A stretch of DNA of 64,000 nt, taken from the NCBI GenBank assembly GCA_963667665.2, contig OY763927.2, positions 960,001 through 1,024,000 on the forward strand, given 5' to 3'. The notes below the pieces were generated by a model. The model saw only the letters and a program-made list of their open reading frames with translations. It was not told the DNA's origin and ran no database searches. Positions 15,119 through 32,254 of the stretch are shown one piece after another (position 1 is the stretch's first letter; the number at the start of each line of letters is the position of its first letter). Source of the DNA: Nitrosopumilus sp. GTDB lineage: Archaea > Thermoproteota > Nitrososphaeria > Nitrososphaerales > Nitrosopumilaceae. The translations under genes and the position numbers were made by a program.

Positions 15119-15138
15119 ATGCCAAATTCAGGCACAAA

Positions 15139-16074
15139 TTACTTGAAAAACGTGACTACAAGATATGCAACATAACCTATAGCCAAACAAACACCCATGG
15201 CTCTATTGATAATTCCAGTTTTCAGAGCAATCAGTAATGAAATGCTAAAGATAATCATTATTGCATAATCAACATAAACATCAGCGCCAATCATTACACC
15301 TCCAAGTGCAGCACCAATTCCCATTATCATCAAGATGTTGTAGATATTACTTCCAATAATGGTTCCAATACCAATATCTGCATGACCCTTTCTAATTGCA
15401 ATTATTGATGTTATTAATTCGGGAAGAGAAGTTCCAATTGCAATTACAGTTAACCCAATAATTTTTTCTGATAATCCAAACTCGTGTGCTAAAATTACAG
15501 CATTATCAACTGTAAGAATTGCGCCAACATACAAAAGTGCAATACCTATTCCAATTAATCCTACAGATTTTAGATATATGTTAGTTTTTTCTTTTTCAGT
15601 GTTCTCTTTGTTTTCCTCTCTATGTTTCATTGCATCTTTGAATGTATAAAATGCAAATACCCCCAATCCGCCAAGTAATAATATTCCATCATAATTAGAA
15701 AGTTCACCATCAACTGAGAGTAAAACAAGTAAAAGAGAAACGCCCAACATGATTGGAATTTCTTTTCGCAAAATAGATTTTCTTACTGCTAAAGGAATAA
15801 GCATTGCAGACACACCAATCACCATTCCAATGTTTGCAATATTACTTCCAATAACATTTCCCAGAATAATTGCACTGTGTTCACCTGCTGCAGCAACACT
15901 AGCAGCAAGTTCTGGAGTTGAAGTACCATACGCTACAATAGTCATCCCTATTACAAGATTACTTATTCTGAATTTTTTTGCAATGTTTACACCGCCGTTT
16001 ACTAACCAATTTCCGCCAAAACATAACATTACTAATCCAACTACAGTTAAAATTGCACTTACTGCTACTTCCAC
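15139..16074 (-). CDS. Ca2+/Na+ antiporter (CaCA, YrbG-like)
   Basis: Two alpha repeats GTSTPEL...GSNIAN and GTSLPEL...GSNIYN. Confidence 0.93.
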   Translation of the reverse strand: MEVAVSAILTVVGLVMLCFGGNWLVNGGVNIAKKFRISNLVIGMTIVAYGTSTPELAASVAAAGEHSAIILGNVIGSNIANIGMVIGVSAMLIPLAVRKSILRKEIPIMLGVSLLLVLLSVDGELSNYDGILLLGGLGVFAFYTFKDAMKHREENKENTEKEKTNIYLKSVGLIGIGIALLYVGAILTVDNAVILAHEFGLSEKIIGLTVIAIGTSLPELITSIIAIRKGHADIGIGTIIGSNIYNILMIMGIGAALGGVMIGADVYVDYAIMIIFSISLLIALKTGIINRAMGVCLAIGYVAYLVVTFFK

Positions 16075-16227
16075 AAAGAACGTTCAGATTTTCGTGGTTT
16101 AAAGGAGATTATTCACTATAATTTCACAATTCTAACAATTGCAATAAACCTGAATTTATCAATCTAGATCTAGGTGTAAAAAAACCAGCTCGGTAGATCA
16201 ACAAAGCTAAAGTTAAAGATTAATAAA

Positions 16228-16246
16228 GTAATATACCGTACCATAC
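16228..16246. promoter_or_regulatory. Tandem GTA-N3-TAC operator pair between TATA-like box and wHTH start
   Basis: GTAATATAC (16228-16236) and GTACCATAC (16238-16246), 10 bp apart, ending 3 nt before the ATG. Confidence 0.6.
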
Positions 16247-16249
16247 AGT

Positions 16250-16597
16250 ATGATGCGAACAAGACTAACATATGTACCACTAGAAGTAGCTGACCAATTC
16301 GAAGATTTCATCATAGAAAGAGATGTGCAAATACTTGATGCAGTAAAAGCAAGAACACGAGATTACAGTACACTATCACTGTTGAAGCTGTTGTATCAGC
16401 TTAGAGGAAATCCTATGACATTCTCAAATTTGTATTCAAAGTCAAAGATTAGAATGAAGAAATCATTTTTGAATTATCTACATCTGTGTGTGAATTACAA
16501 CTTTATCAAAAAAGAGCCAGTAGGGCCAAATGTAATCTATACAATTACAGACAAAGGACGAACTATGTTGAATCTCTTTATCAACAAAGAGTTGTAA
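16250..16597 (+). CDS. Winged helix-turn-helix transcription regulator
   Basis: MTFSNLYSKS...SFLNYLHLCVNYNFI...YTITDKG wing motif. Confidence 0.8.
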   Translation: MMRTRLTYVPLEVADQFEDFIIERDVQILDAVKARTRDYSTLSLLKLLYQLRGNPMTFSNLYSKSKIRMKKSFLNYLHLCVNYNFIKKEPVGPNVIYTITDKGRTMLNLFINKEL

Positions 16598-16646
16598 AAG
16601 AACATAAAGATAATTTTAGAAAATATATTTTTTTATTTTTAGCGAC

Positions 16647-18341
16647 TTAATAGTAATGATGCATTTGTCTTTGTTCTAATCCTTCTTGCTCAAAGTGATT
16701 GTGAGACTTTCCACCATCATGATGAGCATGAACTACTCCATCAATATGACAATGGGTATTGTCAATCAAATTCTTCATGAACACATCATCTACATTCAGT
16801 ATCATGTTAGCAACTTCAACTGCAGTTTTGAAAACTTGTTGTTTAACAACTACTGTTTCAATAATGTCAGATGATGATACGTCAGATATCTTTCTAGTGT
16901 TAGAATTTATTCCATACCATCTTATCTTGCCATTCAATGTTGCAAATTTTGCTCGAAATTGTGTTAATGTATCTAACACATCCATTCCCACATTCTGTGC
17001 TAATGTTAATGGTATTTCATCTACAGCATCTGCAAATCTTTGTATTACAATTTGTTCCTTACCTTCAACAGTTACAGATTGCTTTCTAATTTTTTGTGCA
17101 ACTATTCCTTCAACAGAGCCAGCACCATATACAATGAATGGATGTTCAATGAAATTTCTTAATACATAAAATGCATTCAAAGCATTTCTGTGAAATTCAT
17201 CTAGAAATCGTTTTGAGTTGGCCCTCAATAACAAAGTTACAGATTTTGGATTGTTTCCACCTTCCACAAAAACCATTTTATCTCCACCTACAGTCTTCTC
17301 ATACACTCTTTTTGCAAAACCTAATTCATCGTTAGATATTTTCTCAATATTTTTACAGATCTCAGCACCAGTCGCCTTTTCTAGCCACCATAAATCATTG
17401 TACTTTACTCGCCGCATTGAGATAATACCATGTTTTGCAAGAGCTTCTTGAACAAACTCATTAACTCCTTTCCTAGATATTACGACATTAGCCCCCGAAT
17501 CTACAATATTTTTTACAAGTGCAAGTAAGTCTGTGTTTTCTTGGTTAAGGAATTGGTTCATCTGTTTGGGAGAGTCTATTTCTATCTCTGCCTCCGTTCT
17601 TGTTCTCATTGGTTCTAATGATTCATTAATTAACAGAATCTTGGCATTGTGAATAGTTCTAGGCATTGCAGAACTATCTATTGTTTTATCAATCACAGTA
17701 CCTTTGATCAATTGTATTTCTGTAGCATTTCCTATTTTTTCTTCAATTTTTATGTCATCAATATCTATCTGCCCTCTTTCCAAGTTGGCAATATCACATA
17801 CAGCCTCAATGATAATATCTACAATCTTTGTATTTTCTTCTTGTAAATCAAAAATTGCTTTTCCCTCTAAACATGTAGTTAGTAATTGTCGCATTATTTT
17901 TCTGTCTCTTCTGTTTGATTTTATCTTAATTTCATCCAATGTTTCTAAAGCACAATCTAAACTTTGATTATAACCGCGAGTAATTGTAGCAACAGGAATT
18001 CCAATTTTTAATAATTCTTCAGCATGTTTGAGTAAACTACCAATCAAAACAGCTGTAGATGTTGTACCATCTCCAACATGAGTATCAACGGTGTTAATAG
18101 ATTCTACAACTGATTTAGCTGCAGGATGATCAACATCAACTTTTCTCAAAAACGCACCACCGTGACTTGTAATTGTATCTTCTCCAAGTATGTCAATGTA
18201 TATTTTTTCCATACCGCGCGGACCAAGAGATGTTTTAACTATTTCCGTAACAAGTTTACCTGAAATTAAATTATACATTTGTGATTCTTGTAATCCAATA
18301 CGTGAAATATCTTGATCAAGTAAACCAGGGTATTTCATCAC
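16647..18341 (-). CDS. Divergent group II chaperonin (thermosome-like) with His-rich C-terminal tail
   Basis: SLGPRGMEK, GDGTTST, RRVK and IPLTLAQNVG motifs; tail HCHIDGVVHAHHDGGKSHNH...HHYY; GGAGG SD at 18348-18352. Confidence 0.88.
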   Translation of the reverse strand: MMKYPGLLDQDISRIGLQESQMYNLISGKLVTEIVKTSLGPRGMEKIYIDILGEDTITSHGGAFLRKVDVDHPAAKSVVESINTVDTHVGDGTTSTAVLIGSLLKHAEELLKIGIPVATITRGYNQSLDCALETLDEIKIKSNRRDRKIMRQLLTTCLEGKAIFDLQEENTKIVDIIIEAVCDIANLERGQIDIDDIKIEEKIGNATEIQLIKGTVIDKTIDSSAMPRTIHNAKILLINESLEPMRTRTEAEIEIDSPKQMNQFLNQENTDLLALVKNIVDSGANVVISRKGVNEFVQEALAKHGIISMRRVKYNDLWWLEKATGAEICKNIEKISNDELGFAKRVYEKTVGGDKMVFVEGGNNPKSVTLLLRANSKRFLDEFHRNALNAFYVLRNFIEHPFIVYGAGSVEGIVAQKIRKQSVTVEGKEQIVIQRFADAVDEIPLTLAQNVGMDVLDTLTQFRAKFATLNGKIRWYGINSNTRKISDVSSSDIIETVVVKQQVFKTAVEVANMILNVDDVFMKNLIDNTHCHIDGVVHAHHDGGKSHNHFEQEGLEQRQMHHYY

Positions 18342-18449
18342 TTTTAGCCTCCTTTTAGATATTAAAACATGCTTACTGACGAATTTAATTTACCAAAAAT
18401 AAAGAACACAAAATAAAACGAACAGTAAATTGTTTATTATTTGATTTTA

Positions 18450-20054
18450 CTACGTTACTTCCTTACTTGTAGCATCATCAGGTCCGGGTGTGTCAGGTCC
18501 TGGTGTATTAGAGCCAGGTCCACCTGCACTTGTCGCTGAAGTATCATTTTGGAAGTGTAACAAATCTTCTCCGGCAATTACATCTTCTTCAGGTGGTACA
18601 TAGTCGCGTACATCGTGTCTTGCTTTTCCTGGATACTTTCCTTGGGTTGCTTGTGCTACTATAAAGAACAAAGCAAATGCAATGATAGGAGGTATCATTG
18701 TATCCAATCCTGCCCATTCTTCTGGCATTGTAAAGAAGAATGCAAATCGAATTAGTGAACCAACAACAAGAGCTACAACGGCTGCGGGCATGTTTGCCTT
18801 TTTCCAGAACAAACCTAATGTGAGAGGAGCAAATGCTCCGGCAAAAACTATGTCAAATGCTAAGATGAGATAAATTCCAGGAGCTGGAACAAAGTAACCG
18901 ATAGCAGTTCCAACTATCATCATTGGAATAATTACAACACGAGTAACTTTGAGTAATTGACTATCACTCCAATTTGGTTTGCCCATCCATCGTCTTCGGA
19001 TAATTCTCTGCATCATATTTCTTGAAATTACACTGGAAATTGCCAATAGACCACCACTGGCAGTAGACATTGATGCTCCAACTACGCCCATTAGTATTGC
19101 TGCACCAATTGCAAATGGCAATACTTCTGTAGATAGTAAAGGTAAAGCCATGTTTGGATCAATATCTATTGGAAGATAGAAGAATGCTACAATTCCTAAC
19201 ATGCTAGTTGGAATTACTGTAAACATTGTAAGTGCGCCACCCATCAATGCACCTCTTTGTGCTGTTTTCGGGTTCTTAGCTGAAAATACTCGCTCCATAA
19301 AGTCAAGCGCAACGATATCTCCCAATCCTAGCGCAAGAATAGCACCCCAATTAATCAGCGCGCCATTAGCCATATCATACAATCCCGATAGATCCAAAAA
19401 CGCTGGTGGAGCGTTGTTGTAAATGACATCCCATGGAGTATCTGCAAAGCCACCATAGAAGAAAAGGAAACCAGCCCAAAATGCACCAATTGCAAGATAA
19501 ACTTGGAACAGATTTGTATAAGCCGATGCAAATAATCCTCCAGCAACTGTATAGATTACCACAACTATAGCTGAAATTGCAATACCATAGAAATAATTTA
19601 TACCAAACACAACTTCCAAAATAAATCCACTAGCTGCTAAATTGCCTGCAACAAGAATTAGAAAACTAACAATCATAAGAATGCCGGAAAGACCTTCTGC
19701 TCCATTTCCAAATCTTCTGAAATAGAAATCAGGTAATGTGATCATTGACATTTTGTTTAATGGTTTAGCATAGAATGCAGCTGTTACAAACAGACATAAT
19801 CCTAAACCAATTGGAATAACTGCTCCTGCCCAAAATCCAAATTCAAATACAAGAGCAACATTGCCTAACGATGAATTTCCATCAACTGCTTGAGCTGCAA
19901 GCATAGTTCCAACCATAAACAAAGGCAAACTTTTTCCTGCAATGATCAGTCGCTTACCACTATTTTTGACTAGTTTACCTGCAAATACCCCTACTGCAAG
20001 TGTAATGATAATAAATACGGCAACAGCGATGCCAAACCCATCCATCTCCACCAT
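18450..20054 (-). CDS. Sodium:solute symporter (SSS/SLC5, choline-transporter-like clade)
   Basis: About 13 TM helices; AGKSLP, FYAKPL..ITLPDF, YTVAGGL, ERVFSAK, ASMSTAS and LGLFWKKAN motifs. Confidence 0.88.
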   Translation of the reverse strand: MVEMDGFGIAVAVFIIITLAVGVFAGKLVKNSGKRLIIAGKSLPLFMVGTMLAAQAVDGNSSLGNVALVFEFGFWAGAVIPIGLGLCLFVTAAFYAKPLNKMSMITLPDFYFRRFGNGAEGLSGILMIVSFLILVAGNLAASGFILEVVFGINYFYGIAISAIVVVIYTVAGGLFASAYTNLFQVYLAIGAFWAGFLFFYGGFADTPWDVIYNNAPPAFLDLSGLYDMANGALINWGAILALGLGDIVALDFMERVFSAKNPKTAQRGALMGGALTMFTVIPTSMLGIVAFFYLPIDIDPNMALPLLSTEVLPFAIGAAILMGVVGASMSTASGGLLAISSVISRNMMQRIIRRRWMGKPNWSDSQLLKVTRVVIIPMMIVGTAIGYFVPAPGIYLILAFDIVFAGAFAPLTLGLFWKKANMPAAVVALVVGSLIRFAFFFTMPEEWAGLDTMIPPIIAFALFFIVAQATQGKYPGKARHDVRDYVPPEEDVIAGEDLLHFQNDTSATSAGGPGSNTPGPDTPGPDDATSKEVT

Positions 20055-20099
20055 GTGTTTATTGATTTGATCAAGCTATATTAGCTTTGAATTTTGCAA

Positions 20100-20140
20100 G
20101 TATAGTACGTTTTATGAGGAAAAAATTATTCGTATAATAC
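20100..20140. promoter_or_regulatory. Two GTA-N3-TAC sites upstream of the symporter
   Basis: GTATAGTAC 20100-20108 (centre 50 bp from the ATG) and GTATAATAC 20132-20140. Confidence 0.65.
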
Positions 20141-20317
20141 ATTTTATGAAATAATTTCTATAAATTTCATGATTTTAAAGAAAACTTTTACGATCATAGT
20201 ATGAAATTCATAATTTGTAATTTACAAAAATAATTTATTTTTAAGATAATTTTTCGATCAAACATTCATTACGATTTTAATTCAAAATTTTATTAATTCA
20301 ACAATCTTGCACATATC

Positions 20318-20488
20318 GTGGATAAACAATATGCCATTGCAGTAATTCTGATTATCTTAGGACTGGGGTTAAACCAATCTGGCTCAGCTAACCCATTCTA
20401 TAGTGGTCTTGGAATAGGAGTCATAGCAATGGGAACATTTTGGGTAGTAATTAGATTAATTAAAGAACTCAAGAAAAAACAATCTTAA
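20318..20488 (+). CDS. 56-aa two-helix membrane protein (not in ORF track)
   Basis: GTG start; MDKQYAIAVILIILGLGL...GLGIGVIAMGTFWVVIRLIKELKKKQS*. Confidence 0.6.
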   Translation: MDKQYAIAVILIILGLGLNQSGSANPFYSGLGIGVIAMGTFWVVIRLIKELKKKQS

Positions 20489-20536
20489 TTTTCAAAATTC
20501 ATAAAATAATATAAACACTAATTTAGAATATTTTGT

Positions 20537-21049
20537 GTGCCAGGAAAAGGATATTCTACATTTGGTATGAAACCTGTAATTACAACTAGATTACAAGAAG
20601 CAACAGACAAGAGTTATCCTGGAATGTTTCTTCCCAGTACATTAATTATCATAATGAATGAGATCAAGAGAGGATATTATTCAGTAGAATCACATAAAAT
20701 AAAATTAGATTTGTCTGGTAGATACAATACCATAACTATAAGATCAGATGTTAAAGAATGGTCAGTAGAAAATCATGAAAAACTTGGAAAAGATTATGAA
20801 GAAAGATACAATGTAAAATGCTTTACAAAATTTGTGAGTTATTTTATAGTTAACATGTTAGAATCAAAAAGTGATGCTCAAAACCATTCTATTAGTCTAA
20901 AGGAATTAGATTTCAGTTGGCTTCAAGATAAATATAAAAAACAAAAAAAGAGTCCTGAAGGAATTTCTAGTTTTGAACGATTTGCAGATAGTTACATTAA
21001 TGATTTACTGGTAAAGATTAAAGCGGCAAAAGAAATCTTAACATTATAA
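20537..21049 (+). CDS. Hypothetical protein with internal repeats, possibly tandem ribbon-helix-helix
   Basis: Three segments starting YSTFGMK / YNTITIR / NHSISLK, each followed by helices. Confidence 0.6.
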   Translation: MPGKGYSTFGMKPVITTRLQEATDKSYPGMFLPSTLIIIMNEIKRGYYSVESHKIKLDLSGRYNTITIRSDVKEWSVENHEKLGKDYEERYNVKCFTKFVSYFIVNMLESKSDAQNHSISLKELDFSWLQDKYKKQKKSPEGISSFERFADSYINDLLVKIKAAKEILTL

Positions 21050-21082
21050 ATTTTATTTATAACAATTTAAATTTATAAAAAA

Positions 21083-21334
21083 TTAAAGTGGTGTCATAGT
21101 ATCAATTAATCGTGCATTAACAACATGACAATCTTTTTCTTGTATTTCAAGGTCTACAGTATATTTCAAACCATCTAGCATGAAATTAACTTGAACATCC
21201 CAAGATACTCTAGGTCCTTTTTCAGGAACTTGGAATGTTTCATTCACTCTAAAGTCACTTACGTCACCATATAATGCATTGATTATTCTACGAGACTCTC
21301 TATCGATGTCTTCTGATGTGCTAACAGCCTGCAT
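21083..21334 (-). CDS. Small hypothetical protein (possibly PepSY-like fold)
   Basis: 83-aa ORF; helix followed by beta strands WDVQV..YTVDLEI..VVN. Confidence 0.65.
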   Translation of the reverse strand: MQAVSTSEDIDRESRRIINALYGDVSDFRVNETFQVPEKGPRVSWDVQVNFMLDGLKYTVDLEIQEKDCHVVNARLIDTMTPL

Positions 21335-21395
21335 AACTAAACTATCAAAGAATGAATATAAAAATATTCTAATTAATTTTTCCTAGTAACAGTCA

Positions 21396-22652
21396 TCATA
21401 ATTTTGTTAGTCTTTTTAAAAATGATTCTTTATTCATTTTGTCCAACTTTTCTTGAACTTTAAATCGATGAAAAATTGCAGTTTGATTTGTAGGTTCAAG
21501 TTCTAGTGCTTTGTTGTAACATTTTAGAGACTCTTCATATTTTTTTAATAATAAAAGTAATTTTCCTTTATAGCTTATTGCATAGACGTAATTAGGATTG
21601 ATTTTTAGTGCTTTTTCACAATATTCAAGCGCCTCATCATATTTTTTTGAGTGTTCTAGAAACCACACCATAGTGCATAACGCCAGTACATTTCTTGGTT
21701 CAATCTCCAAAGCACATTCAAAATAGAATCTTGCTTTACCAAATTTTTTCAACTGAAACAAAGATGTGCCTTTACTGTAAAGTGCCTTAACATTATCAGA
21801 GTCATATTCTAAAATTTTATCGAAACACTCTATGGCTTTTTTATATAGTCGTGTTCTATCCAAGACTATTCCTTTATTGAATTGAGCATCAGTACATTTA
21901 GGATCAATTTTTAGGGCGTCATCATAAAAAACAAAAATCTCTTTGTTTGAAAATCCTGCTAAATCAAGAGTCCATCCCTTAGCCACAAGAGCTTTAGTAT
22001 TTTTCTTATCTATCTCCAGAGCTTTTGTATAGAATTTTATTGCTTCTTCATGTTTTCCTTTCTTTGTACGCTTCTGTCCTTTTTCATATAGAATGTCTGA
22101 TTGTCTAGAATCTTCATCAATAGCTTTTTGTAAGAATAGCATGGACTCTGAACTTTTTGCTAATCTTCCCAGAATCAAACTTTTGGCGTAAAGAGCAGCC
22201 GAGTTTTTTGGATTATTCAATAAAACTTGATCAATTATTGTTATAGCCTCATCATTACGCTCTAATTTACTTAAACATAATCCCATAGATGTTAATGAAT
22301 CAGAATATTGTGAATCAATTTCAAGAGATTTTTTGAAAGAAGATATTGCTTCTTCGTATTTTTCTATTTTTTCAAGTGCAAGACCTTTGTTGTATAAAGC
22401 ATCAAGACTTTTGGGATCTATAGATAAAATTTTATCAAAACAAATTATAGCATTTTGAAAATCTTCCAATTTGTATAATGTCCTGCCTTTATGAAGTTGA
22501 GCTACAATGTTTTCAGGTTCAAGTGAAATAGCCTTGTTAAATTTTAAAACAGCTTTTTTAAATTGATTGTAATAAACTGCGGTTAATCCTTGATTTAAAA
22601 AATACCATGCATTTTTTGAATTTTGTAAAATCATATTGGTATTGTCACCCAA
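21396..22652 (-). CDS. Tetratricopeptide repeat protein
   Basis: About 11 34-aa repeats of KG...A...F/YDKAL.IDP. Confidence 0.9.
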   Translation of the reverse strand: MGDNTNMILQNSKNAWYFLNQGLTAVYYNQFKKAVLKFNKAISLEPENIVAQLHKGRTLYKLEDFQNAIICFDKILSIDPKSLDALYNKGLALEKIEKYEEAISSFKKSLEIDSQYSDSLTSMGLCLSKLERNDEAITIIDQVLLNNPKNSAALYAKSLILGRLAKSSESMLFLQKAIDEDSRQSDILYEKGQKRTKKGKHEEAIKFYTKALEIDKKNTKALVAKGWTLDLAGFSNKEIFVFYDDALKIDPKCTDAQFNKGIVLDRTRLYKKAIECFDKILEYDSDNVKALYSKGTSLFQLKKFGKARFYFECALEIEPRNVLALCTMVWFLEHSKKYDEALEYCEKALKINPNYVYAISYKGKLLLLLKKYEESLKCYNKALELEPTNQTAIFHRFKVQEKLDKMNKESFLKRLTKL

Positions 22653-22674
22653 ATGTTATGTTTATAGTTAAAAC

Positions 22675-22747
22675 GTACATTACACATAATTGATTTTTTT
22701 AGAAAATGATGATATTTAATAATTAAAATACAATATACGTACTTTAC
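22675..22747. promoter_or_regulatory. Two GTA-N3-TAC sites upstream of the ureohydrolase
   Basis: GTACATTAC 22675-22683 and GTACTTTAC 22739-22747 (centre 50 bp from the ATG); TTTAATTA box at 22756-22763. Confidence 0.65.
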
Positions 22748-22792
22748 TTGAAATCTTTAATTATCAAAGTTGCACATAGAATTTGATTTAAA

Positions 22793-23908
22793 ATGGGCAT
22801 GGAATTTTATGGTGATGATTTTCAAGGTGCAGATGTTGCGCCATTTGTAGGAATTAATACATTTTTACATCTTCCTTGGGTAAAGACACACAAAGAATTA
22901 CTTGAAGCAAAACCAGACGTTGCAATTATTGGAGAGCCATTTGACTTTGGTACTACTATCCGCCCCGGAGCAAGATATGGGCCAAGAGCAATTAGAGCTG
23001 CATCTACAATTCCATCACCACCTTTTGAACGATTCAACATTGAAACGGGTGCAGACCCATTTGGAACTTTTCGAACAGTAGATTATGGAGACGTCATAGT
23101 TTCACCAGGGGATGTTATAGAATCACACAAGAGGATGACTCTAAAAGTTAAGGAAGTGTTAGAGGCAGATGGTATTCCTGTAATGCTTGGAGGAGATCAC
23201 TCAATTACTTATGCAAACGTTAGAGCATTTCAGAAAAAATACAAAAACATAGGCATGATTCATTTTGACACACACGCTGATTGTGCACCACAAGGACTAA
23301 CGGGTTTCAAGTATGATCATGGAGCACATATTAGAAGAATAATGGAGATGGGTTGTCTTAAAGGAAAGAACTACTCGCTTGTAGGTCCAAGAGGATATTG
23401 GCCAGGACGTGATTTGTACAAATGGATGTCAGACCAAGATTTCCAATGGTTTACAATGCTTGATGTTGAAGAATTAGGAATTGATGTTATTGCAAAAGAA
23501 ATAGCTGATAGAGCAAATGATGGAACAGATGCAGTCTATCTTAGTTGGGATATTGATTCTTTTGATCCTGCTTATGCACCAGGTACGGGAGAACCAGAAC
23601 CAAACGGACTTACATCAAGAGAAGGCATTAGAATGATTCGTCTATTATCAAAATCATTTGATCCTGATAGATTTGCAATGGATTTGGTAGAAATTGCTCC
23701 AGCATATGATGTCAGTGATTCAAGTTCTTACAACGGAGGAATCACATCTGGATTAGGACAAAGATTAGTTATTGAACTATTGGCAGGATTATCATTAACA
23801 AAGAGAGGTTTGGAGGGAGGAGATCCTGTAAGACCAAAGGCATACATGGGTACTGGAAACACATACAGTTTTGGTAATCCAACATCTAAAATTCCAAAGA
23901 GAGATTAA
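22793..23908 (+). CDS. Ureohydrolase (agmatinase/arginase/guanidinase superfamily), substrate unknown
   Basis: RPGARYGP, GGDHS, DTHAD, SWDIDSFDP, PGTG and EIAP: all dimetal ligands present. Confidence 0.92.
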   Translation: MGMEFYGDDFQGADVAPFVGINTFLHLPWVKTHKELLEAKPDVAIIGEPFDFGTTIRPGARYGPRAIRAASTIPSPPFERFNIETGADPFGTFRTVDYGDVIVSPGDVIESHKRMTLKVKEVLEADGIPVMLGGDHSITYANVRAFQKKYKNIGMIHFDTHADCAPQGLTGFKYDHGAHIRRIMEMGCLKGKNYSLVGPRGYWPGRDLYKWMSDQDFQWFTMLDVEELGIDVIAKEIADRANDGTDAVYLSWDIDSFDPAYAPGTGEPEPNGLTSREGIRMIRLLSKSFDPDRFAMDLVEIAPAYDVSDSSSYNGGITSGLGQRLVIELLAGLSLTKRGLEGGDPVRPKAYMGTGNTYSFGNPTSKIPKRD

Positions 23909-24303
23909 TGAAAATTGAAGTAGTGGTACAGGGAGATCCGGATATCAAGCCATTTACCAAGATATTTTATTATGAAAAATCTGATGAAACAATTTTCTTT
24001 GAATCCACACAATTAATCAAAAATCACCTATCAAACAATATGCGATTAAACATAAACGAGACACTAGGATTGTTTGTAGCTTATGTCATAACTTCGTTAA
24101 ATGAACGTAAAACAATCAACGAAATACAAAAACACATACCAGATATGCTTTTACCACATCAAGTGATGATTGGGGTTCCTGAAAGTTTGAGAAAACTAAC
24201 TTTTACAATTACAACCAAAGATATTGATAAAGAACAAATATTCATTACAACACCCATTCAAATTGTTCAATATTCTCTTGATGGACAGAAACAAACAGCA
24301 TAG
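23908..24303 (+). CDS. Divergent urease gamma-subunit (UreA)-like protein
   Basis: RLNINET...KTINEI...LLPHQVMIGVPESL aligns by eye with UreA KLNHPEA...RSVPEL...[14 protein letters not shown]; TAATG overlap with the ureohydrolase. Confidence 0.7.
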   Translation: MKIEVVVQGDPDIKPFTKIFYYEKSDETIFFESTQLIKNHLSNNMRLNINETLGLFVAYVITSLNERKTINEIQKHIPDMLLPHQVMIGVPESLRKLTFTITTKDIDKEQIFITTPIQIVQYSLDGQKQTA

Positions 24304-24317
24304 GAGTAATGGAATAA

Positions 24318-25076
24318 TTGATTGAAACAATAATGGGAATGTTACAAGCCAACAACCCTTTTTTAATTATAATTGCTGGTTTGATGATTGGATTATTGCA
24401 TGCTTTTGAGCCTGATCATCTTAGTGCAGTTTCCACTCAACTATTAAAAAACAACAATAATTCAAAGAGTTCAAAAAAACGAGACTTGCAAAATCTTACC
24501 ATTATCTCTTCTTTAAGAGGAGCACTTTGGGGAATGGGACATACATCAAGTATTATTTTAATCGGACTATTGATTGCAGGTTTATCATTAAACATACCTG
24601 ATGATTTTTTTATTAGTGCAGAAGTGCTTGTTGGTTTAATGTTGATTACTTTAGCAATTTTTACATTTACAAACAAAAGTATCTTTAAACAAAAACATGT
24701 TCATCCTCACACACATTCAGACGGAATTTCTCACACACATTCTCATGAACATAATGAAAATCACAAACATGGTCACAAAGCATACCTAATTGGTTGTGTT
24801 CACGGTATTGCAGGTAGTGGTAGTCTTGTTGCATTATTTGCATCTACAATGAATGGTTTTGATATGATGATTTATTTTCTAATTTTATTTGGCATAGGCA
24901 GTATAATTGGTATGACTGTTGCTAGCGGCGTTATGGGATTACCATTTATTTTATTATCAAAAGTTAATTCTATTACTAAATATCTAAGATACACAATAGC
25001 TAGTATAACTTTCATAATTGGTCTTAATATTATAATTACAATTGGATTAGATAATAAATTATTTTCTTTAAACTAA
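24318..25076 (+). CDS. UreH/NicO-like nickel transporter or Ni-handling membrane protein
   Basis: GLLHAFEPDH, WGMGH, a His-rich loop and GCVHGIAGS motifs. Confidence 0.85.
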   Translation: MIETIMGMLQANNPFLIIIAGLMIGLLHAFEPDHLSAVSTQLLKNNNNSKSSKKRDLQNLTIISSLRGALWGMGHTSSIILIGLLIAGLSLNIPDDFFISAEVLVGLMLITLAIFTFTNKSIFKQKHVHPHTHSDGISHTHSHEHNENHKHGHKAYLIGCVHGIAGSGSLVALFASTMNGFDMMIYFLILFGIGSIIGMTVASGVMGLPFILLSKVNSITKYLRYTIASITFIIGLNIIITIGLDNKLFSLN

Positions 25077-25095
25077 ACATATAGTTTGAAAACTA

Positions 25096-26808
25096 TTAAA
25101 ACAAATTGTATAGTCTTGACATAGAAACTTTGTCGGCAGGATCTGTTGTTGCAATTTTCCCATCAACTTTAACTTCATATGTTTCAGGATTTACCTCAAT
25201 GTTTGGAGTAAGATCATTATACAACATGTCTTTCTTTCCAATAGAACGGCAATTTTTCACAGGAACCAATTTCTTTTTTGAATTGATTTCAGATTCAATA
25301 CCCTTGTCTAGTGCCAGTTGAGATGTGAATGTTACAGAAGTGGAATATTTTGTTTGGCCAAGGGCTCCAAACATAGGACGATACATGACAGGTTCAGTAG
25401 TAGGAATTGATGCATTAGGATCACCCATAAGGGAATATGCAATAAAACCGCCTTTTATGATCATTTTTGGTTTGACTCCAAAAAATGCAGGGGACCAAAT
25501 TACAATATCAGCTAATCGTCCAGGCTGCAATGAGCCCACATAATCTGAAACTCCATGAGTTATGGCAGGATTTATTGTAATTTTAGCAAGATAACGCTTC
25601 ACTCTGAAATTATCATTTTGAGCATTGTCTTCAGGTAATGCACCAGCCATCTTTTTCATTTTATCAGCAGTCTGCCAATTTCTGGTTGTAACTTCTCCTA
25701 CTCTTCCCATAGCTTGACTATCAGAAGACATCATACTCAACACACCAATATCATGTAGTACATCCTCTGCAGCAATAGTCTCACCCCTAATTCTAGACAT
25801 TGCAAAGGAAACATCTTCAGGTACTGATGAGTTTAGATGATGGCAAACCATCATCATGTCAAGATGTTCTGCTAGTGTGTTTACTGTAAATGGTCTTGTA
25901 GGATTTGTAGATGAAGGAAGTATATTTTCTTCACCTGCAATTTTCATAATATCTGGAGCATGTCCACCTCCAGCACCTTCAGTATGATAAGTATGAATTG
26001 TTCTTCCTGCAATTGCTTCAATTGTGTCATCAACAAATCCACATTCATTTAGAGTATCAGTATGGATTGCAACTTGGGTATCAGTTTTGTCTGCAACCCT
26101 CAAAGCAGAATCAATCGTAGCAGGAGTTGTACCCCAATCTTCATGTAGTTTTAGTCCACAAGCTCCTGCTTCAATTTGTTCAAGTAATGCAGATTCACGA
26201 GAGTCATTTCCTTTTGCAAGAAATCCAAAGTTTAGTGGTAATTCATCAACAGACTCAATCATTCTATGAATATTCCATTTACCAGGAGTGCATGTTGTTG
26301 CATTTGTTCCATCAGCTGGACCAGTTCCACCGCCAATCATCGTGGTGGTACCATTACATATTGCATGTATTGCTTGTTGAGGAGAAATAAAATGAATATG
26401 TGAATCAATTGTTCCAGGAGTACAAATGGTATGCTCGCCGGCAATTATCTCAGTGTTAGAAGATATTACCATATCAATATCATCCATGATGTCAGGATTA
26501 CCAGCATTTCCTATTCCAACAATTTTTCCATCTTTTACTCCAATGTCTGCTTTGATAATTCCCAAAATAGGATCCATTACAATTGCGTTAGTAATTACAA
26601 GATCAAGTGATTCTGCTCTAGATACGCCACTTGCTTGCCCCTGCCCATCTCTTATGCTCTTTCCTCCTCCAAATACAGCCTCATCACCATACGTAGTCAA
26701 GTCTTTTTCAATTTCAATAATCAAATCAGTATCTGCAAGACGGATTCGGTCACCCACAGTAGGACCAAACAAATCAACATGTGTTTTTCTTGGAATATCT
26801 AGAGTCAT
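25096..26808 (-). CDS. ureC: Urease alpha subunit
   Basis: [37 protein letters not shown] and SDSQAMGR motifs. Confidence 0.99.
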
Positions 26809-27182
26809 TGGGTCATTCCTTTGAATCCTTTTTCAGTAGCTTTTTTGAATGCCTCTTCTTGCTTTTCTTCTAGACTTCCATTCACCAGTCCACTAAATCC
26901 ATAAACAATTTTTTTTCCTCCAAATTCCGTTAGTTCAATTTCTTTTGTATCTCCGGGTTCAAATCTAACTGATGTGCCGGCAGGAATATTGAGATGGTAT
27001 CCGTAAGATTGTTTCCTTTGAAATTCAAGAGCTTTGTTTACTTCAAAAAAGTGTGTATGTGATCCTACCTGTATTGGTCTATCTCCAGTATTTCTAACAC
27101 TAACAGATGTAGTTGATTTTCCTACGTTAGCAATGATAGGTTCATTAGATGAGAAGTATTCGCCAGGAATCATAGTTATCAC
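26805..27182 (-). CDS. ureB: Urease beta subunit
   Basis: [18 protein letters not shown] and [12 protein letters not shown] motifs. Confidence 0.98.
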
Positions 27183-27481
27183 ACAATAGGGTCATGAATT
27201 GTTACAAGTTTAGTTCCATCTTCAAATGTTGCCTCCACTTGAATAGATGTAATTAATTCTACAACTCCAGGTAAAACATCATCTTTTGATAGAACATTTT
27301 TTCCAGAGCTCATAAGTTCCGGAACAGATCTTCCATCTCTTGCACCTTCTAAGATATGATCAGCAAGAATAGATACAGCTTCAGGATGATTAAGTTTCAA
27401 TCCACGATTTTTTCTTCTTCGAGCAAGTTCTGATGTAACAAAAACATTTAGTTTTTCTAATTCTCTAGGAGTAAGCATCAT
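27179..27481 (-). CDS. ureA: Urease gamma subunit
   Basis: [19 protein letters not shown] and [17 protein letters not shown] motifs; start taken at ATG 27481. Confidence 0.98.
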
Positions 27482-27566
27482 TGAATTGGATAGTGTATCA
27501 GAGTATTTAATCATTAAAACGGTAAAATCTAACAAAGTATAACTCTGTCAAAAAACAAAGTTACTT

Positions 27567-28052
27567 GTGTTAGAAGTTAATTCCCCTATAGGAAATATTT
27601 TTCATGATAAAGAATTTGATAATTTGAAAAATGAGAATTTTGAAAGACTCAAGATTTCCCGAATTGAATTAGAAAAAAGAATTTTGAGAAGAAAGACAGA
27701 TCGAGGAACAGATATTGGTTTGAATTTAGACCCAGGAGTGAAACTTTGCAATGGAGATATTATCAAAAATGGAGATACAAAAATTGTTGTGGAGCAATTA
27801 CCAGAAAAAATAATTACAGTTAAACTAAAAAATGAAAAGATGACAGATGTAATGGTGCTGTTAGGGCACATCATTGGAAACAGACACAGACCGATATCCA
27901 TTCAAGGAGATGAGATTTCATTTCCAATTCAAGCAGATTCAGAAAAGGAAATATTTACAAAATTATTTCAGAGCATTATCAACCATATCAACATTACAGT
28001 AGAAGAACAGATATTTTCCCCTCAATTAGGTGCAGATGTACATGAACATTGA
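27567..28052 (+). CDS. ureE: Urease accessory protein UreE
   Basis: RRKTDRGTDIG and GHIIGNRH motifs; C-terminal HEH. Confidence 0.92.
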   Translation: MLEVNSPIGNIFHDKEFDNLKNENFERLKISRIELEKRILRRKTDRGTDIGLNLDPGVKLCNGDIIKNGDTKIVVEQLPEKIITVKLKNEKMTDVMVLLGHIIGNRHRPISIQGDEISFPIQADSEKEIFTKLFQSIINHINITVEEQIFSPQLGADVHEH

Positions 28053-28743
28053 CGAGATAGAACAAGAGTTAGGGGTAATGCAGTTATCTGACTCATTTTT
28101 TCCTACAGGTATTTTTGCTACTTCAAATGGATTAGAATTTCTTTTCACAGAAAAAAAAATTCAAGATATGGCAGACTTGATAGAAATTATCAGAATTAAC
28201 ATTACTCAGCAGATAGGACCATCAGATTGTGTTGCACTTGCAAATGCATTTGATAGTGCAAACAAATGTGATTTTGAAAAAGTGATTGAAGTAGACAATA
28301 TTGCTTTTGCCACTAAATCAATTAAAGAAATACGCAATTCATCAGTAAGATCGGGGGTTCAATTAGTAAAATGTGTTTCAGAATTTATAACAGATGATGA
28401 AATTTTAAATCAATACAAAAACAACATAACAAAAAACAATGCACATGGGATATTTCCTGTGGCATTTGCAATTTGTTGTAATGCATTAAAAATTAAAAAA
28501 GAAAAAAGCATGACGATGTTATTGTATGGTTTTACTGTTGGGGTTGTAGGTGCAGCATTACGATTAGGATTAATTCAACATTTTGAAGGTCAAAAAATAA
28601 TTCACAATATAAAACCAATCATCAGTCAAACTATCAAAGAATATTCTAATGAATCACTTTTTGAAATGTGGCAATTTGCACCCCAAATAGATATTGTTCA
28701 AATGTCACATGAAAAAATGGATTCAAAAATGTTTATTACATAA
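28042..28743 (+). CDS. ureF: Urease accessory protein UreF
   Basis: [16 protein letters not shown] and C-terminal HE...MFIT motifs. Confidence 0.92.
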
Positions 28744-28760
28744 AAATTAGATTTTTCATC

Positions 28761-29417
28761 ATGACTCACATCGCAAGAATCGGTATTGGTGGACCAGTTG
28801 GTTCTGGTAAAAGCATGTTAATTGAACGCTTGGTGCCAATGTTGGCTGAAAAGGGATACAGTGTAAGTATAATCTCAAATGATGTGATTTCAAAAGAAGA
28901 TGCTGACAGAATGAGGGATAATTTAGCTACGAAAAAAGGACTACTTCCAGAAAATTTAGTGATTGGTCTTGCAACTGGCGGTTGTCCACATACTGCAATC
29001 AGAGAAGATCCTTCCATGAATCTTGCAGTAATAGAAGAAATAGAATCAGAGCATCCTGATCTTGACCTTATAATTATTGAAAGTGGAGGAGATAACATTA
29101 CAACTACATTCAGTCCCATTCTTGCAGATTATTCTATTTACATAGTTGATGTTGCAGGAGGAGACAAGTATCCAAGAAAAGGCGGATTAGGAATTGAGAG
29201 TTGTGATCTTTTAGTAATTAACAAGATAGATCTTGCCATGATGGTTGGAGCAGACCTTGATATCATGAAAAGAGATGCAGAAAAGATTAGAAAAGAAAAA
29301 CCATTTGAATTTATCAATTGTAAAACAGATGAAGGTATAATGAAGATAACTGAACACATTATTCATGATGTCTTGTTTGATTCTGCACCAAAATCAGAAC
29401 TTACACAAAAGGTGTGA
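28761..29417 (+). CDS. ureG: Urease accessory GTPase UreG
   Basis: [26 protein letters not shown] and NKID motifs. Confidence 0.97.
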
Positions 29418-29420
29418 TTA

Positions 29421-30347
29421 TTGAATAAACTAGAATACTACACACCAAATGACATACCAAAAGAAATTCAGACATATGATTCAGAAATAAAACAATTAGG
29501 AGTTGGAAAATCAGGAAAAGTAGGCATTCTTGATTTGGAACTTCAAAAAAACAGTAATGGTAAAACAGTTGTTACAAAACAATTTTCTCAAGTTCCGTTA
29601 CAATTTCAACGAGCATTATATCCTGAAAACTCACTTCCTGAAATGGCATATCTTTATGTTATTTCTCCATCAGGAGGAGTTCTACAAGGGGATAGATACA
29701 GAATGGATGTGTCATTAAAAAATAAGGCCATCGCTCATATGACAACTCAAGGTGCCACTAGCATCTACAGTATGGATTCAAATTTTGCATCACAAATTGT
29801 AAACATCACACTTGATGAGAATTGTTATTTAGAATACATCCCTGATCAAATAATACCAAACAAGAATTCCAGGTATTATCAAAAAGTTAATCTGAATATT
29901 CACGATAATGCAACTTTGGTATATTCAGAAATTTTAACTCCTGGAAGAGTAGCCATGGATGAATCTTTTGAATATGATATTTGTTACCTAAGAACACACT
30001 GTAAGAACCAAGACAAAAAAATAAGGTTTTTAGAAAATACAAAAATTGAGCCAAAAAAACAAAAATTAAAAAATTTTGGAATATTAGGCAAATACAACAC
30101 AGTTGGAACAGTTTACATCTTGACTAGAAAAGAAAATGTAATTGAACTAGAAAATTCAATAAATGAAAGAATCAAAAAGACAGATGCAATGTCTATTGGA
30201 ACATCCATTCTTCCAGATGAATCCGGAATAGTCATCAGAATTTTAGGAGATAAGACAGATAATATTTCTGATGTAATTTTCAAGATACTTGAAATTAGTA
30301 GAAAGAAAATTCTTGGTGCATCAATTAGTAAAATAAGAAAAAACTAG
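29421..30347 (+). CDS. ureD: Urease accessory protein UreD
   Basis: SPSGGVLQGD, TTQGAT, LEYIPD and PGRVA..E.F motifs. Confidence 0.93.
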   Translation: MNKLEYYTPNDIPKEIQTYDSEIKQLGVGKSGKVGILDLELQKNSNGKTVVTKQFSQVPLQFQRALYPENSLPEMAYLYVISPSGGVLQGDRYRMDVSLKNKAIAHMTTQGATSIYSMDSNFASQIVNITLDENCYLEYIPDQIIPNKNSRYYQKVNLNIHDNATLVYSEILTPGRVAMDESFEYDICYLRTHCKNQDKKIRFLENTKIEPKKQKLKNFGILGKYNTVGTVYILTRKENVIELENSINERIKKTDAMSIGTSILPDESGIVIRILGDKTDNISDVIFKILEISRKKILGASISKIRKN

Positions 30348-30378
30348 GCTTAATGCTATACATGGAATATGTAAGACA

Positions 30379-30594
30379 CTAGGGAAGAAGTGAAATATTC
30401 ATTTCTTCTTCTAATTCAGCGTTTTTATCAATCAACAGTTGATTTTGATCATCAATTTCAAACTGATTTTCTGATTCATCTGAAGAATCAAATCCAAAAT
30501 AAAAAATCAAATTAACTACAATAAACATTATTAGAATTAGAACTAATTTGGTTTTAGTTGATAGTGCTCTATTAGAGTCGGGTCTATTAGCCAT
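30379..30594 (-). CDS. Small single-TM hypothetical protein
   Basis: Hydrophobic helix followed by an acidic tail. Confidence 0.55.
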   Translation of the reverse strand: MANRPDSNRALSTKTKLVLILIMFIVVNLIFYFGFDSSDESENQFEIDDQNQLLIDKNAELEEEMNISLLP

Positions 30595-30679
30595 AATGTA
30601 AATTCAAATTACTCATTTTTATCTATGCCTAAAATGAAAATCTCGCCACAAGATTTAAAATTCAATTTGATATGGAAAA

Positions 30680-30919
30680 ATGAAATTGAATGAAAACAAA
30701 ATAGAATGGTATGATGAAATTTTTGATTTTTTAAAGGACGAACACCCTGATTGGGAAAAATTGCTAGTAGATGAACAAGTCAAAATAAAAACAAATCAAC
30801 ATACAATAGAATTTTCTGTAATAGAGCAAGTTTTACAAAAATTTAATCTTAGAATTACTAATATTTCATATACAGACTATTATGGTATAATTTTTAGAAT
30901 TGAGAAATTAGAAAAATAA
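30680..30919 (+). CDS. Hypothetical protein
   Basis: 79-aa ORF with TTTAAAA box about 25 nt upstream. Confidence 0.6.
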   Translation: MKLNENKIEWYDEIFDFLKDEHPDWEKLLVDEQVKIKTNQHTIEFSVIEQVLQKFNLRITNISYTDYYGIIFRIEKLEK

Positions 30920-30984
30920 TTTCACTATACTATATTTCATTTTGACCAATTAGATTTTAATAATCAATTTACCAACGAATTTCA

Positions 30985-31350
30985 ATGGATTATGAAAAAC
31001 TGTGCAAAAACATTCTTGAATTAGATCCAAAAATAAGGTTCACAGGAGTCGTAAATACCAAAGGTGTTCTAGTTAATAGTTTTGAACAGAAGGGAGTGGA
31101 GCAGTATTTGTCCCCTGACGAATTGAAAATGTCCATTCATTATTCAATGTGAGAATGGGAGAAATCTCAAAATCTATCCCATGAACTTGGTTTTGAGAAA
31201 TCTTCAGTTTTAGAATATGACAAAGTTTCCTTAATTAGCATACCAATTGACAGCAGTAACTTATTTGTGGCAAGTATTGAGCCTAATGAAGATTTTTTCA
31301 AAATGATTTCAAAAATAAAACCAATAATACAAAATTTTAATAAAGAATAG
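30985..31350 (+). pseudogene. Roadblock/profilin-like thaumarchaeal protein interrupted by in-frame TGA
   Basis: MDYEKLCKNILELDPKIRFTGVVNTKG...HYSM*EWEK...LEYDKVSLISIP...NKE*; TGA at 31150-31152 and the frame continues intact. Confidence 0.75.
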
Positions 31351-31479
31351 TCATAAGATTTCATTTTTGAAACTTGAAAAAGTTTGATTGGATAGTATGA
31401 TTACTAAAAACCATCTTACCAAAAGCGTACAAAATTCTTAGTTAGTATAGTAATTAGACATAACAAATCGACGTAAACT

Positions 31480-32205: not shown

Positions 32206-32254
32206 TTAAAACTACAAGCAAATTCTTTTATTCACAGCATATACGCATCAAACT

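Follow-up and report, generated by a model that had tools for sequence, protein, structure and literature searches.

How an ammonia-oxidising archaeon (AOA) might draw ammonia from an organic guanidino compound is the question raised by a block of genes in Nitrosopumilus sp. (GenBank assembly GCA_963667665.2, contig OY763927.2, positions 960,001 to 1,024,000 of the forward strand). This stretch of 64,000 nucleotides is referred to here as the window, and all positions are counted from its first letter. At positions 16250 to 30347 a gene for an enzyme of the arginase/ureohydrolase superfamily (the ureohydrolase, UH) and a gene for a sodium:solute symporter (SSS) lie close to a urease cluster. 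Archaeal AmoA is encoded in the window's genome, and the host is therefore an ammonia-oxidising archaeon. Such archaea are among the most abundant microbes of the ocean and of soil, and only a few direct substrates are known for them, namely ammonia, urea and, in some, cyanate. An earlier note on the window, made from its letters, had proposed that a guanidino cation is imported, turned into urea inside the cell and used as a source of ammonia. In this region an ordinary urease system (ureABC and ureEFGD) adjoins a second, separable unit, the ureohydrolase island. That the island genes are inherited and regulated together, as a unit tied to urease, is strongly supported and held here with high confidence. 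The best explanation of that unit is that a guanidino compound is imported and converted to urea and then to ammonia; this is held with moderate confidence, at a little better than even.

We infer a route that concerns uptake, substrate, metal, the pairing of regulator and operator, and the flow of nitrogen to ammonia oxidation. The island SSS would take up an external guanidino compound. The relatives of the enzyme suggest that this may be one of the guanidino acids, a compound resembling agmatine or arginine, or one not yet studied. UH, a binuclear-metal enzyme, would hydrolyse this compound to urea and an amine or acid, and urease would convert the urea to two NH3 and CO2, feeding both ammonia oxidation and assimilation. 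A likely regulator, orf170, would act on an ACGTA-N3-TAC element in the UH and SSS promoters, and a His-tailed thermosome, a NicO-like permease and a UreA-like protein may help in UH folding, metal supply or assembly. The features of the block, with position, strand and supporting match, are the following.

16250-16597, plus strand: an open reading frame (ORF) of 115 residues, the "wHTH (winged helix-turn-helix) regulator" of the earlier note, with only sub-threshold family matches
16647-18341, minus strand: island thermosome (group II chaperonin) paralogue with a His-rich C-terminal tail (PF00118, E=3.6e-134)
18450-20054, minus strand: island SSS (PF00474, E=1.6e-27)
20100-20110 and 20131-20140: two CGTA-N3-TAC copies before SSS (motif match)
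20318-20488, plus strand: orf56, a small hydrophobic ORF just 5' of orf170 and in the same orientation (conservation in loci of the window's own family, f1)
20537-21049, plus strand: orf170, a predicted tandem ribbon-helix-helix protein and candidate regulator (AlphaFold2, AF2, model)
21083-21334, minus strand: orf83, a small conserved protein (in 33/33 island loci)
21396-22652, minus strand: TPR-repeat protein, divergent from UH, a variable island member (multiple TPR Pfam families)
22673-22683 and 22737-22747: two ACGTA-N3-TAC copies before UH (motif match)
22793-23908, plus strand: UH (PF00491, E=1.4e-79)
23908-24303, plus strand: UreA-like urease gamma paralogue (PF00547, E=2.3e-6)
24318-25076, plus strand: His-rich membrane protein, a putative NicO/UreH-type nickel permease (weak PF13386 match, E=4e-4)
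25096-26808, minus strand: ureC (980 bits against NF009686)
26805-27182, minus strand: ureB (Pfam/NCBIfam scan)
27179-27535, minus strand: ureA, the genuine urease gamma gene (145 bits)
27567-30347, plus strand: ureE, ureF, ureG and ureD, urease nickel-insertion accessory genes (UreE_N/UreE_C, UreF, cobW/UreG and UreD families)

The ORFs of the window were listed and then scanned against Pfam and NCBIfam, and these scans recovered the block named in the earlier note (thermosome, SSS, ureohydrolase, UreA-like gene, permease, ureABC and ureEFGD). Four members of the block, orf56, orf170, orf83 and the TPR protein, were absent from that note's list.

Orthologues were sought in a sample of 401 Nitrososphaeria genomes, and 33 island loci were compared, namely the window and, around 32 other UH genes, stretches of at most 20 kb, four of which end early at contig edges. 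The loci come from three families: the window's own (f1), the soil type (f3) and f5, to which only two of them belong. UH orthologues at least 72% identical to the window's enzyme occur in 118 of the 401 genomes. Beside UH, the 33 loci hold orf83 in every case, SSS in 32, and orf170 and the thermosome in 29 each; the NicO-like permease follows with 26 (0/6 in f3), orf56 with 23, the UreA-like gene with 21, the TPR protein with 16 (all f1) and the wHTH-like ORF with 1. Most of the absences are accounted for by the two f5 loci or by the edge of a region or contig. None of the 64 genomes that have ureC without UH held the island SSS (positive controls 5/5), and orf170 occurred in 1 of these 64, as a fragment only (controls 3/3). 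The co-occurrence that the earlier note had put forward as a check on its proposal is thus borne out for SSS and the thermosome, and orf170 and orf83 behave likewise; of the 33 loci, 29-33 have each of these four genes together with UH.

Genomes that carry the island are almost all a subset of those with urease. UreC is encoded in 178 of the 401 genomes, and the 401 divide into 114 genomes with both ureC and UH, 4 with UH only, 64 with ureC only and 219 with neither; the four with UH only are drafts of 60-370 contigs. These genome-wide tallies, like that of the UreA-like gene, take in two unpublished genomes, G282 and G364, both with UH and ureC, from which no locus was drawn. The island is also separable from urease, staying together even where urease lies hundreds of kilobases away: only 12 of the 33 island loci have ureC inside the fetched region, and this gene lies from about 95 kb to more than 1 Mb from an intact island in G400, G152, G129, G076, G082, G036, G117, G236 and G012. 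Two loci hold urease remnants beside the island, a ureC fragment in one (L009 of G357, 2688-2935) and fragments of ureC, ureG and ureD in the other (L043 of G133, 17229-18797), with an intact ureC elsewhere in each genome. These fragments suggest that island and urease were once adjacent and were then separated by rearrangement and decay.

Co-regulation is indicated by a pseudo-palindrome, ACGTA-N3-TAC(GT), which occurs in two copies upstream of both UH and SSS, with a TATA-like box following closely on the proximal copy. When matches to CGTA-N3-TAC on both strands are counted over the 220 nt before the start codon, the element precedes UH in 28/33 loci (with at least two copies in 17) and SSS in 23/32 (with at least two copies in 20), the background being 0.076 matches per 223 nt. 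It was absent before ureA (0/6), ureE (0/8) and ureD (0/7). A position 50-59 nt before the start codon is held by 25 of 55 UH sites, for which it is the commonest spacing, and by 21 of 53 SSS sites, and the element is conserved from f1 to f3. Across the 64-kb window ACGTANNNTAC was observed 4 times against 0.16 expected, and three of the four lie in the UH and SSS promoters. CGTA-N3-TAC also occurs outside the island promoters at 16237, 13 nt before the start of the 115-residue ORF, and at 31679, inside a PAC2-family gene; either could be chance.

The protein that may bind this element is orf170. Pfam scans of orf170 with 20 orthologues, and of orf83, returned no credible family. The AF2 model of orf170 (pLDDT 83.5) comprises two strand-helix-helix units followed by two helices, and its fold matches in Foldseek are weak (F-plasmid relaxosome chains at E=0.014 with TM 0.50 on the target, VirC2 and AvtR); these we take to be ribbon-helix-helix DNA binders. 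We take orf170 to be the likely regulator of the island. The AF2 model of orf83 (pLDDT 84) places one helix on a four-stranded sheet, and its matches are weak and generic, of cystatin/monellin-like type (E>=0.014), from which no function is drawn. The small orf56 is conserved at 40-88% identity in 22 other f1 loci and was not seen in f3 or f5 loci. The 115-residue ORF, which the earlier note had placed in the unit as its regulator, does not belong there: it matches DUF4364 (E=0.0065) and Sso10a (E=0.0095) below threshold, was found in 0 of 32 other island loci, and is a lineage-specific neighbour rather than a conserved island member.

The identity of UH bears directly on the substrate. UH scores 267.9 bits against PF00491 (cut-off 22) and carries the metal motifs GGDHS, DTHAD and DIDSFDP, which supply all six ligands of the binuclear metal centre, namely the His of GGDHS, DxHxD and the DxD of S.D.D..DP. 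The corresponding residues (H136, D159, H161, D163, D253 and D255) are invariant in 22 orthologues. The ratio of nonsynonymous to synonymous substitution (dN/dS) of UH is 0.017-0.059. Its gene is labelled 'agmatinase' or 'speB' in public records and papers. The enzyme lies below both NCBIfam agmatinase cut-offs, however (TIGR01230, 157.2 against 174.3; NF002564, 205.8 against 302), and its best solved match is the guanidinobutyrase GbuA (3nio, E=4.1e-50, 174 bits), followed by the guanidinases 7esr (E=5.9e-49) and 9fek (E=1.3e-47) and by the guanidinopropionase 3nip; the agmatinase of E. coli is matched at E=1.3e-34 only. Arginase-family genes number three in the window's genome, and for the two paralogues of UH the best solved match is an archaeal agmatinase (3pzl). 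The earlier note had raised the prospect that UH groups with the housekeeping agmatinases; it does not, failing their cut-offs and having a guanidinobutyrase and guanidinases as its nearest matches. UH is thus not the housekeeping agmatinase of a genome that has two agmatinase-type paralogues, and by its nearest solved chains, a guanidinobutyrase, two guanidinases and a guanidinopropionase, it is an enzyme of catabolic type. The metal ligands are the same in manganese and nickel ureohydrolases, and the hints of nickel for UH are circumstantial, consisting of the NicO-like permease and the His-rich chaperonin tail.

Relatives of UH were found as 12287 matching cluster representatives among 1.84 billion. 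In this search a single full-length relative from outside the AOA reached 49% identity, and the next full-length ones stood at 42% or less; the 49% cluster consists of haloarchaeal 'agmatinase family proteins' encoded on plasmids. Placement within the family was made from the best matches to solved structures and from a 12-sequence alignment. The AOA and haloarchaeal enzymes have in common the loop PSPP(F/Y)(E/Q)(R/H)FNIETG, a seven-residue insert and a C-terminal extension, all of which are missing from the other relatives and from the archaeon's own agmatinase-type paralogues. They also have a Glu in PGTGEPEP, at a position where GbuA, GpuA and PAH have Thr and the guanidinases their gating Trp. 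By these marks UH belongs to an uncharacterised subfamily common to AOA and haloarchaea.

The island SSS scores 96.9 bits against PF00474 (cut-off 22.8). Among solved structures its closest relative is the high-affinity choline transporter CHT1 (E=1e-24), followed by vSGLT, its best NCBIfam equivalog match is PutP, and no solved DUR3 chain is matched at E<=1e-3. A different SSS, of 667 residues, lies directly downstream of ureC in 8/8 fetched f1 urease loci without UH; it is 22-30% identical to the island SSS and matches solved DUR3 at E=9.7e-195. The island SSS, 25% identical to the AOA DUR3, is therefore not a DUR3 and represents another branch of the family. It is probably the importer of the UH substrate. 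The statement in the earlier note that no DUR3 or UT urea transporter is present in the block extends to the whole genome, an assembly of 2 contigs with 99.97% completeness and the basis for the genome-wide negatives given here: the DUR3-type transporter found next to ureC in relatives has no orthologue there, PF03253 (UT) is not matched, and the single PF00474 gene is the island SSS. Among well-assembled UH-positive genomes DUR3 is found in 35/53, and 18 are without it; four single-contig genomes within this group of 18 have no UT match either. Among urease-positive genomes without UH, DUR3 is found in 50/64 (29/32 within f1). Urease without a recognised urea importer is thus commoner among island carriers, and is not exclusive to them.

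Some further observations concern these transporters. Several genomes (e.g. G129, G076, G152 and G316) hold two or three DUR3-type genes each, and in genomes of this kind some pairs align to the query over one and the same range, with equal identity and bit score. Also recurrent near urease is a second DUR3 class, at about 55% identity. A broken second N-terminus of the island SSS lies at G159:C1:363819-364223, 41% identical, with three stop codons and far from the intact island.

Three further products are candidate helpers of UH. The island thermosome scores 448.5 bits against PF00118 and 491.1 against NF041082 (thermosome_alpha, cut-off 450), lies below the cut-off of TIGR02339 (481.2 against 671.1), and is 41-43% identical to the two other thermosome genes of the genome. 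Its tail is conserved in 28 full-length orthologues, with the f1 form NTHCHIDG.VHAH..GGK.HNHFEQEGLEQRQMHHYY and the f3 variant THTH.DGT.HSH.GG...HDHYFDKLGKQQRP.HHYY. A full-length match (at least 46% identity, aligned through the tail) was found in 4/4 UH-positive genomes and in 0 of 33 ureC-only genomes tested, where the best hits, 39-45% identical, are housekeeping thermosomes. An Hsp60 homologue published for AOA urease loci is described as occurring in Nitrososphaerales and Nitrosocaldus and absent from Nitrosopumilales, as far as the available sections of that paper go (PMC5797428). In UH-less urease loci of f3 and of a further family, f2, a PF00118 protein of 518 residues is encoded between ureC and ureE, 22-25% identical to the island thermosome and without an aligned tail; this chaperonin-like protein is probably that Hsp60 homologue. 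Since the gene between ureC and ureE is a separate paralogue, the island thermosome is distinct from the published homologue, and equating the two was rejected. Family f3 has two urease types (loci L076-L082), with UreC 77-79% or 66-69% identical to the window's; the latter type has its own chaperonin-like gene between ureC and ureE, and UH in f3 occurs mostly with the former.

The UreA-like ORF begins with an ATG that overlaps the UH stop codon by 1 nt. Its product can be aligned to UreA (urease gamma) along the entire fold, with some 20 extra residues at the N-terminus, but it scores 28.3 against PF00547 (cut-off 23.9) and only 26.1 against NF009712, where 123 is required. It is a paralogue and not the gamma subunit of the urease operon, for which the genuine ureA sits in ureABC. 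A search of the 401 genomes gave about 104 strong matches, and UH lies directly upstream in 30/30 of the loci retrieved with this ORF. The gene evolves about six to eight times faster than UH (dN/dS 0.13-0.24); its open frames and a ratio in the range of purifying selection led to rejection of the idea that it is a decaying pseudogene. The earlier note had assigned it to an operon with UH; in the window it stands directly downstream of UH, but several lineages have lost it and kept the rest, and it was not detected beside UH in 12/33 island loci. The window's permease scores 20.8 against PF13386 (cut-off 24.9). Among 12 His-rich membrane proteins scanned (the window's and 11 orthologues), 3 pass the PF13386 cut-off, and 6 match PF03824 (NicO) at E<=0.01, over its cut-off in 2.

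Transcription of parts of the block is suggested by RNA libraries. Contigs from four metatranscriptome runs of one study, at no less than 99% identity, cover SSS (18415-20044) and UH (22801-23936), and RNA-library contigs also cover orf83 (21024-21316), the wHTH-like ORF, ureG and parts of ureA and ureB. In the literature, no paper was found that characterises this island, its transporter or its substrate in AOA. The view of the earlier note that the pathway is uncharacterised in these archaea therefore stands in that respect, but it needs qualifying for one soil clade, in which an SSS-agmatinase cluster is already in print, with the SSS described as a low-affinity urea transporter and the SpeB as 'regulating urea concentration' in the accessible text (PMC11131427). 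Two to three speB copies are given for most AOA (PMC10753782, in the part available), and the available portions of two papers propose an internal route from arginine through agmatine to urea (PMC6790972, PMC6742649). A genome screen of nitrifiers lists no guanidine-degradation genes in AOA in its main text (PMC11410670), and the same is true of floodplain nitrifier metagenome-assembled genomes in the available sections of another paper (PMC12625717).

Several points weigh against import of a guanidino compound to feed urease. Genomes are related by descent and are not independent samples, so the co-occurrence counts overstate statistical support, and dropping the unpublished G282 and G364 lowers the positive counts by 2. 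DUR3 is kept in two thirds of the island genomes (35/53), so the island is no replacement for urea uptake and urease in those genomes does not depend on it; DUR3 is also missing from 14/64 island-less urease-positive genomes, so its lack is not specific to island carriers. The urease promoters are without the shared element, and urease is therefore not visibly in the same regulon. Among the putative helpers, the UreA-like gene is dispensable, because six genomes keep the rest of the island without it, UH there running straight into the permease gene (gaps 3-224 nt). The earlier note had cast the permease as a dedicated helper; it does accompany 26/33 island loci, but its specificity for the island was rejected, since it also adjoins ureD in two UH-less genomes (L068 and L073). 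No RNA-library contig covers the thermosome, TPR or permease genes, gaps that prove nothing, and the contigs, from one study, show no level, strand or operon structure and may include DNA carry-over. Finally, no paper was found with a measured substrate, transport or enzyme activity for the island.

The main rival, which we judge unlikely, is that the island is a unit for urea supply or homeostasis, in which SSS is a second, non-DUR3 urea transporter and UH acts on an internal compound such as agmatine from arginine decarboxylation, so that urea from inside and outside the cell is pooled. This is essentially the printed reading of the soil-clade cluster, whose SSS is called a low-affinity urea transporter and whose neighbouring enzyme is called SpeB in the text available (PMC11131427), and the internal route itself has been proposed for AOA (PMC6790972 and PMC6742649, in part). 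That UH and SSS are co-regulated would also suit a common purpose of supplying urea, and a genome with urease but without DUR3 or UT would profit from an entry route for urea. Yet the island SSS has no solved-DUR3 match, is only 25% identical to the DUR3 of AOA and never occurs with urease alone (0/64), and the presence of a true DUR3 in 35/53 island carriers argues for a different substrate. An internal agmatine source would also sit oddly with UH, which fails the agmatinase cut-offs in a genome already provided with two agmatinase-type paralogues. In Halalkalicoccus, moreover, SSS, regulator and UH lie on one strand, an arrangement typical of a transporter paired with its catabolic enzyme.

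A bolder proposal, which we regard as rather unlikely, ties the enzyme physically to urease. UH would belong to a new subfamily of ureohydrolases, depend on nickel, and be physically linked to urease in its maturation and use, the UreA-like protein mimicking the urease gamma surface and the thermosome serving as a dedicated nickel-carrying chaperonin. Such mimicry would let UreDFG load UH, or let UH dock on urease for direct transfer of urea. If true, it would explain, beyond the consumption of urea, why the island is nearly confined to urease-positive genomes, and it would add an unrecognised organic substrate for energy and nitrogen to those of abundant marine and soil ammonia oxidisers.

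Internal salvage or detoxification is quite improbable. Here UH would remove an endogenous guanidino by-product and SSS would import an unrelated solute, for instance a proline- or choline-like osmolyte, the linkage reflecting shared regulation and not a pathway. The nearest solved relative of SSS is indeed a choline transporter and its best equivalog is PutP, and a detoxification role has been suggested for human guanidino-acid hydrolase (PMC9772407, in the portion available). This account is difficult to square with strict co-inheritance of SSS and UH in two archaeal phyla, with a promoter element common to just these two genes, and with confinement of the island to genomes that have urease, since detoxification alone would not require this. 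Very improbable, lastly, is that UH is a nickel-dependent guanidinase like the cyanobacterial GdmH or the comammox enzyme and that the archaeon uses guanidine itself: two guanidinase structures (7esr and 9fek) are among the three best solved matches and the NicO-like permease and His-rich chaperonin tail are companions suggestive of nickel, but UH has Glu at the position of the gating Trp (Trp305/313) and HGAHIRR in place of HT.PWFH, the main text of the nitrifier screen lists no guanidine-degradation genes in AOA, and the comammox gene is linked to an APC permease, not to an SSS (PMC11410670).

The conserved island defined here, present in 118/401 sampled genomes, has its own transporter, regulator element and helpers. 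If the import and hydrolysis of a guanidino compound is correct, the substrate range of a key group of nitrifiers would be wider, the reading of the 'SSS urea transporter' and of 'speB copy number' in AOA genomes would change, and attention would turn to an uncharacterised ureohydrolase subfamily common to AOA and haloarchaea.

To the left of the block lie genes for a PmbA/TldD-family metallopeptidase (13760-15118, plus strand) and a Na/Ca exchanger (15139-16074, minus strand), and to its right PAC2-family and AIR-synthase-related genes (31480-33277, plus strand); none of these recurs with the island. An Rfam scan of window positions 15000-31500 found no riboswitch. Its only match was 5_ureB_sRNA (RF02514) at 26365-26655 on the plus strand, antisense to ureC (51.1 bits, E=5.2e-11); this was rejected as an sRNA gene, being more likely conserved coding sequence of urease alpha.

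Among known systems, the closest likeness to UH is found in GbuA and GpuA of Pseudomonas aeruginosa (PDB 3nio and 3nip) and in human guanidino-acid hydrolase. These enzymes have the ureohydrolase fold and the same six metal ligands, a similar HG..(F/I)RR segment after DxHxD, and a catabolic role in which urea is released from a guanidino compound. The AOA enzyme departs from GbuA by a four-residue insert, PFER, which contains an Arg, at the position of the capping Arg72, and from GbuA and GpuA by a Glu in place of the Thr of the PGTG.PEP motif, by the seven-residue insert SSYNGGI and by a C-terminal extension of about 40 residues. The guanidinases GdmH of Synechocystis (7esr/7oi1) and of Nitrospira inopinata (9fek) are likewise close solved relatives. 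Their gating Trp (Trp305 in Synechocystis, Trp313 in N. inopinata) lies in PGTGWPEP, where UH has PGTGEPEP, and their HT.PWFH segment is replaced in UH by HGAHIRR. The comammox guanidinase provides the precedent of a nitrifier that turns a guanidino compound into urea and then ammonia; it is linked to an APC permease, whereas the island UH is linked to an SSS. GdmH and the comammox guanidinase are nickel-dependent, and a similar question of helpers arises for them (PMC11410670, in the part available). The SpeB agmatinase of polyamine synthesis belongs to the same superfamily, but UH fails the agmatinase cut-offs.

The HspA protein of Helicobacter pylori is a GroES with a His-rich, nickel-binding tail. 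The island thermosome resembles it as a component of a chaperonin system with a His-rich C-terminal tail in an organism reliant on a nickel enzyme, but HspA is a bacterial co-chaperonin, whereas the island protein is a full group II chaperonin subunit that tracks UH and not urease. The canonical urea-utilisation locus of AOA comprises ureABC, ureEFGD, a DUR3-type SSS and UT, to which soil lineages add an Hsp60 homologue. The window's urease half corresponds to this system, and the island is almost confined to genomes with urease; unlike the canonical locus, the window has no DUR3 or UT, and its SSS comes from another branch of the family.

The nearest parallel to the island as a whole is found on haloarchaeal plasmids, for which literature searches turned up no characterisation. 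The sister enzyme of Natronorubrum bangense is 48% identical to UH in the 12-sequence alignment and has the inserts, the Glu and the C-terminal extension in common with it; on its plasmid the gene and a PhoU-like regulator adjoin a complete urease cluster. On pNG700 of Haloarcula marismortui the sister gene has as neighbours a PhoU-like regulator and an SSS, the latter sharing 37% identity with that of the island (E=1e-94), and on plasmid 1 of Halalkalicoccus jeotgali the order is SSS, regulator, UH on one strand. These loci differ from the island in having a regulator of PhoU/AbrB type instead of orf170, and they are without the UreA-like gene, orf83 and orf56. A cpn60/TCP-1 paralogue of Haloarcula lies about 6 kb from the sister gene and is 26% identical to the island thermosome, its tail unaligned. 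At 1-2821 of the pNG700 region (L086) a formamidase gene and the cpn60/TCP-1 paralogue occur together, another pairing of an amidohydrolase with a chaperonin. To judge by these sequences, the placement of UH beside an SSS or beside urease recurs independently in haloarchaea.

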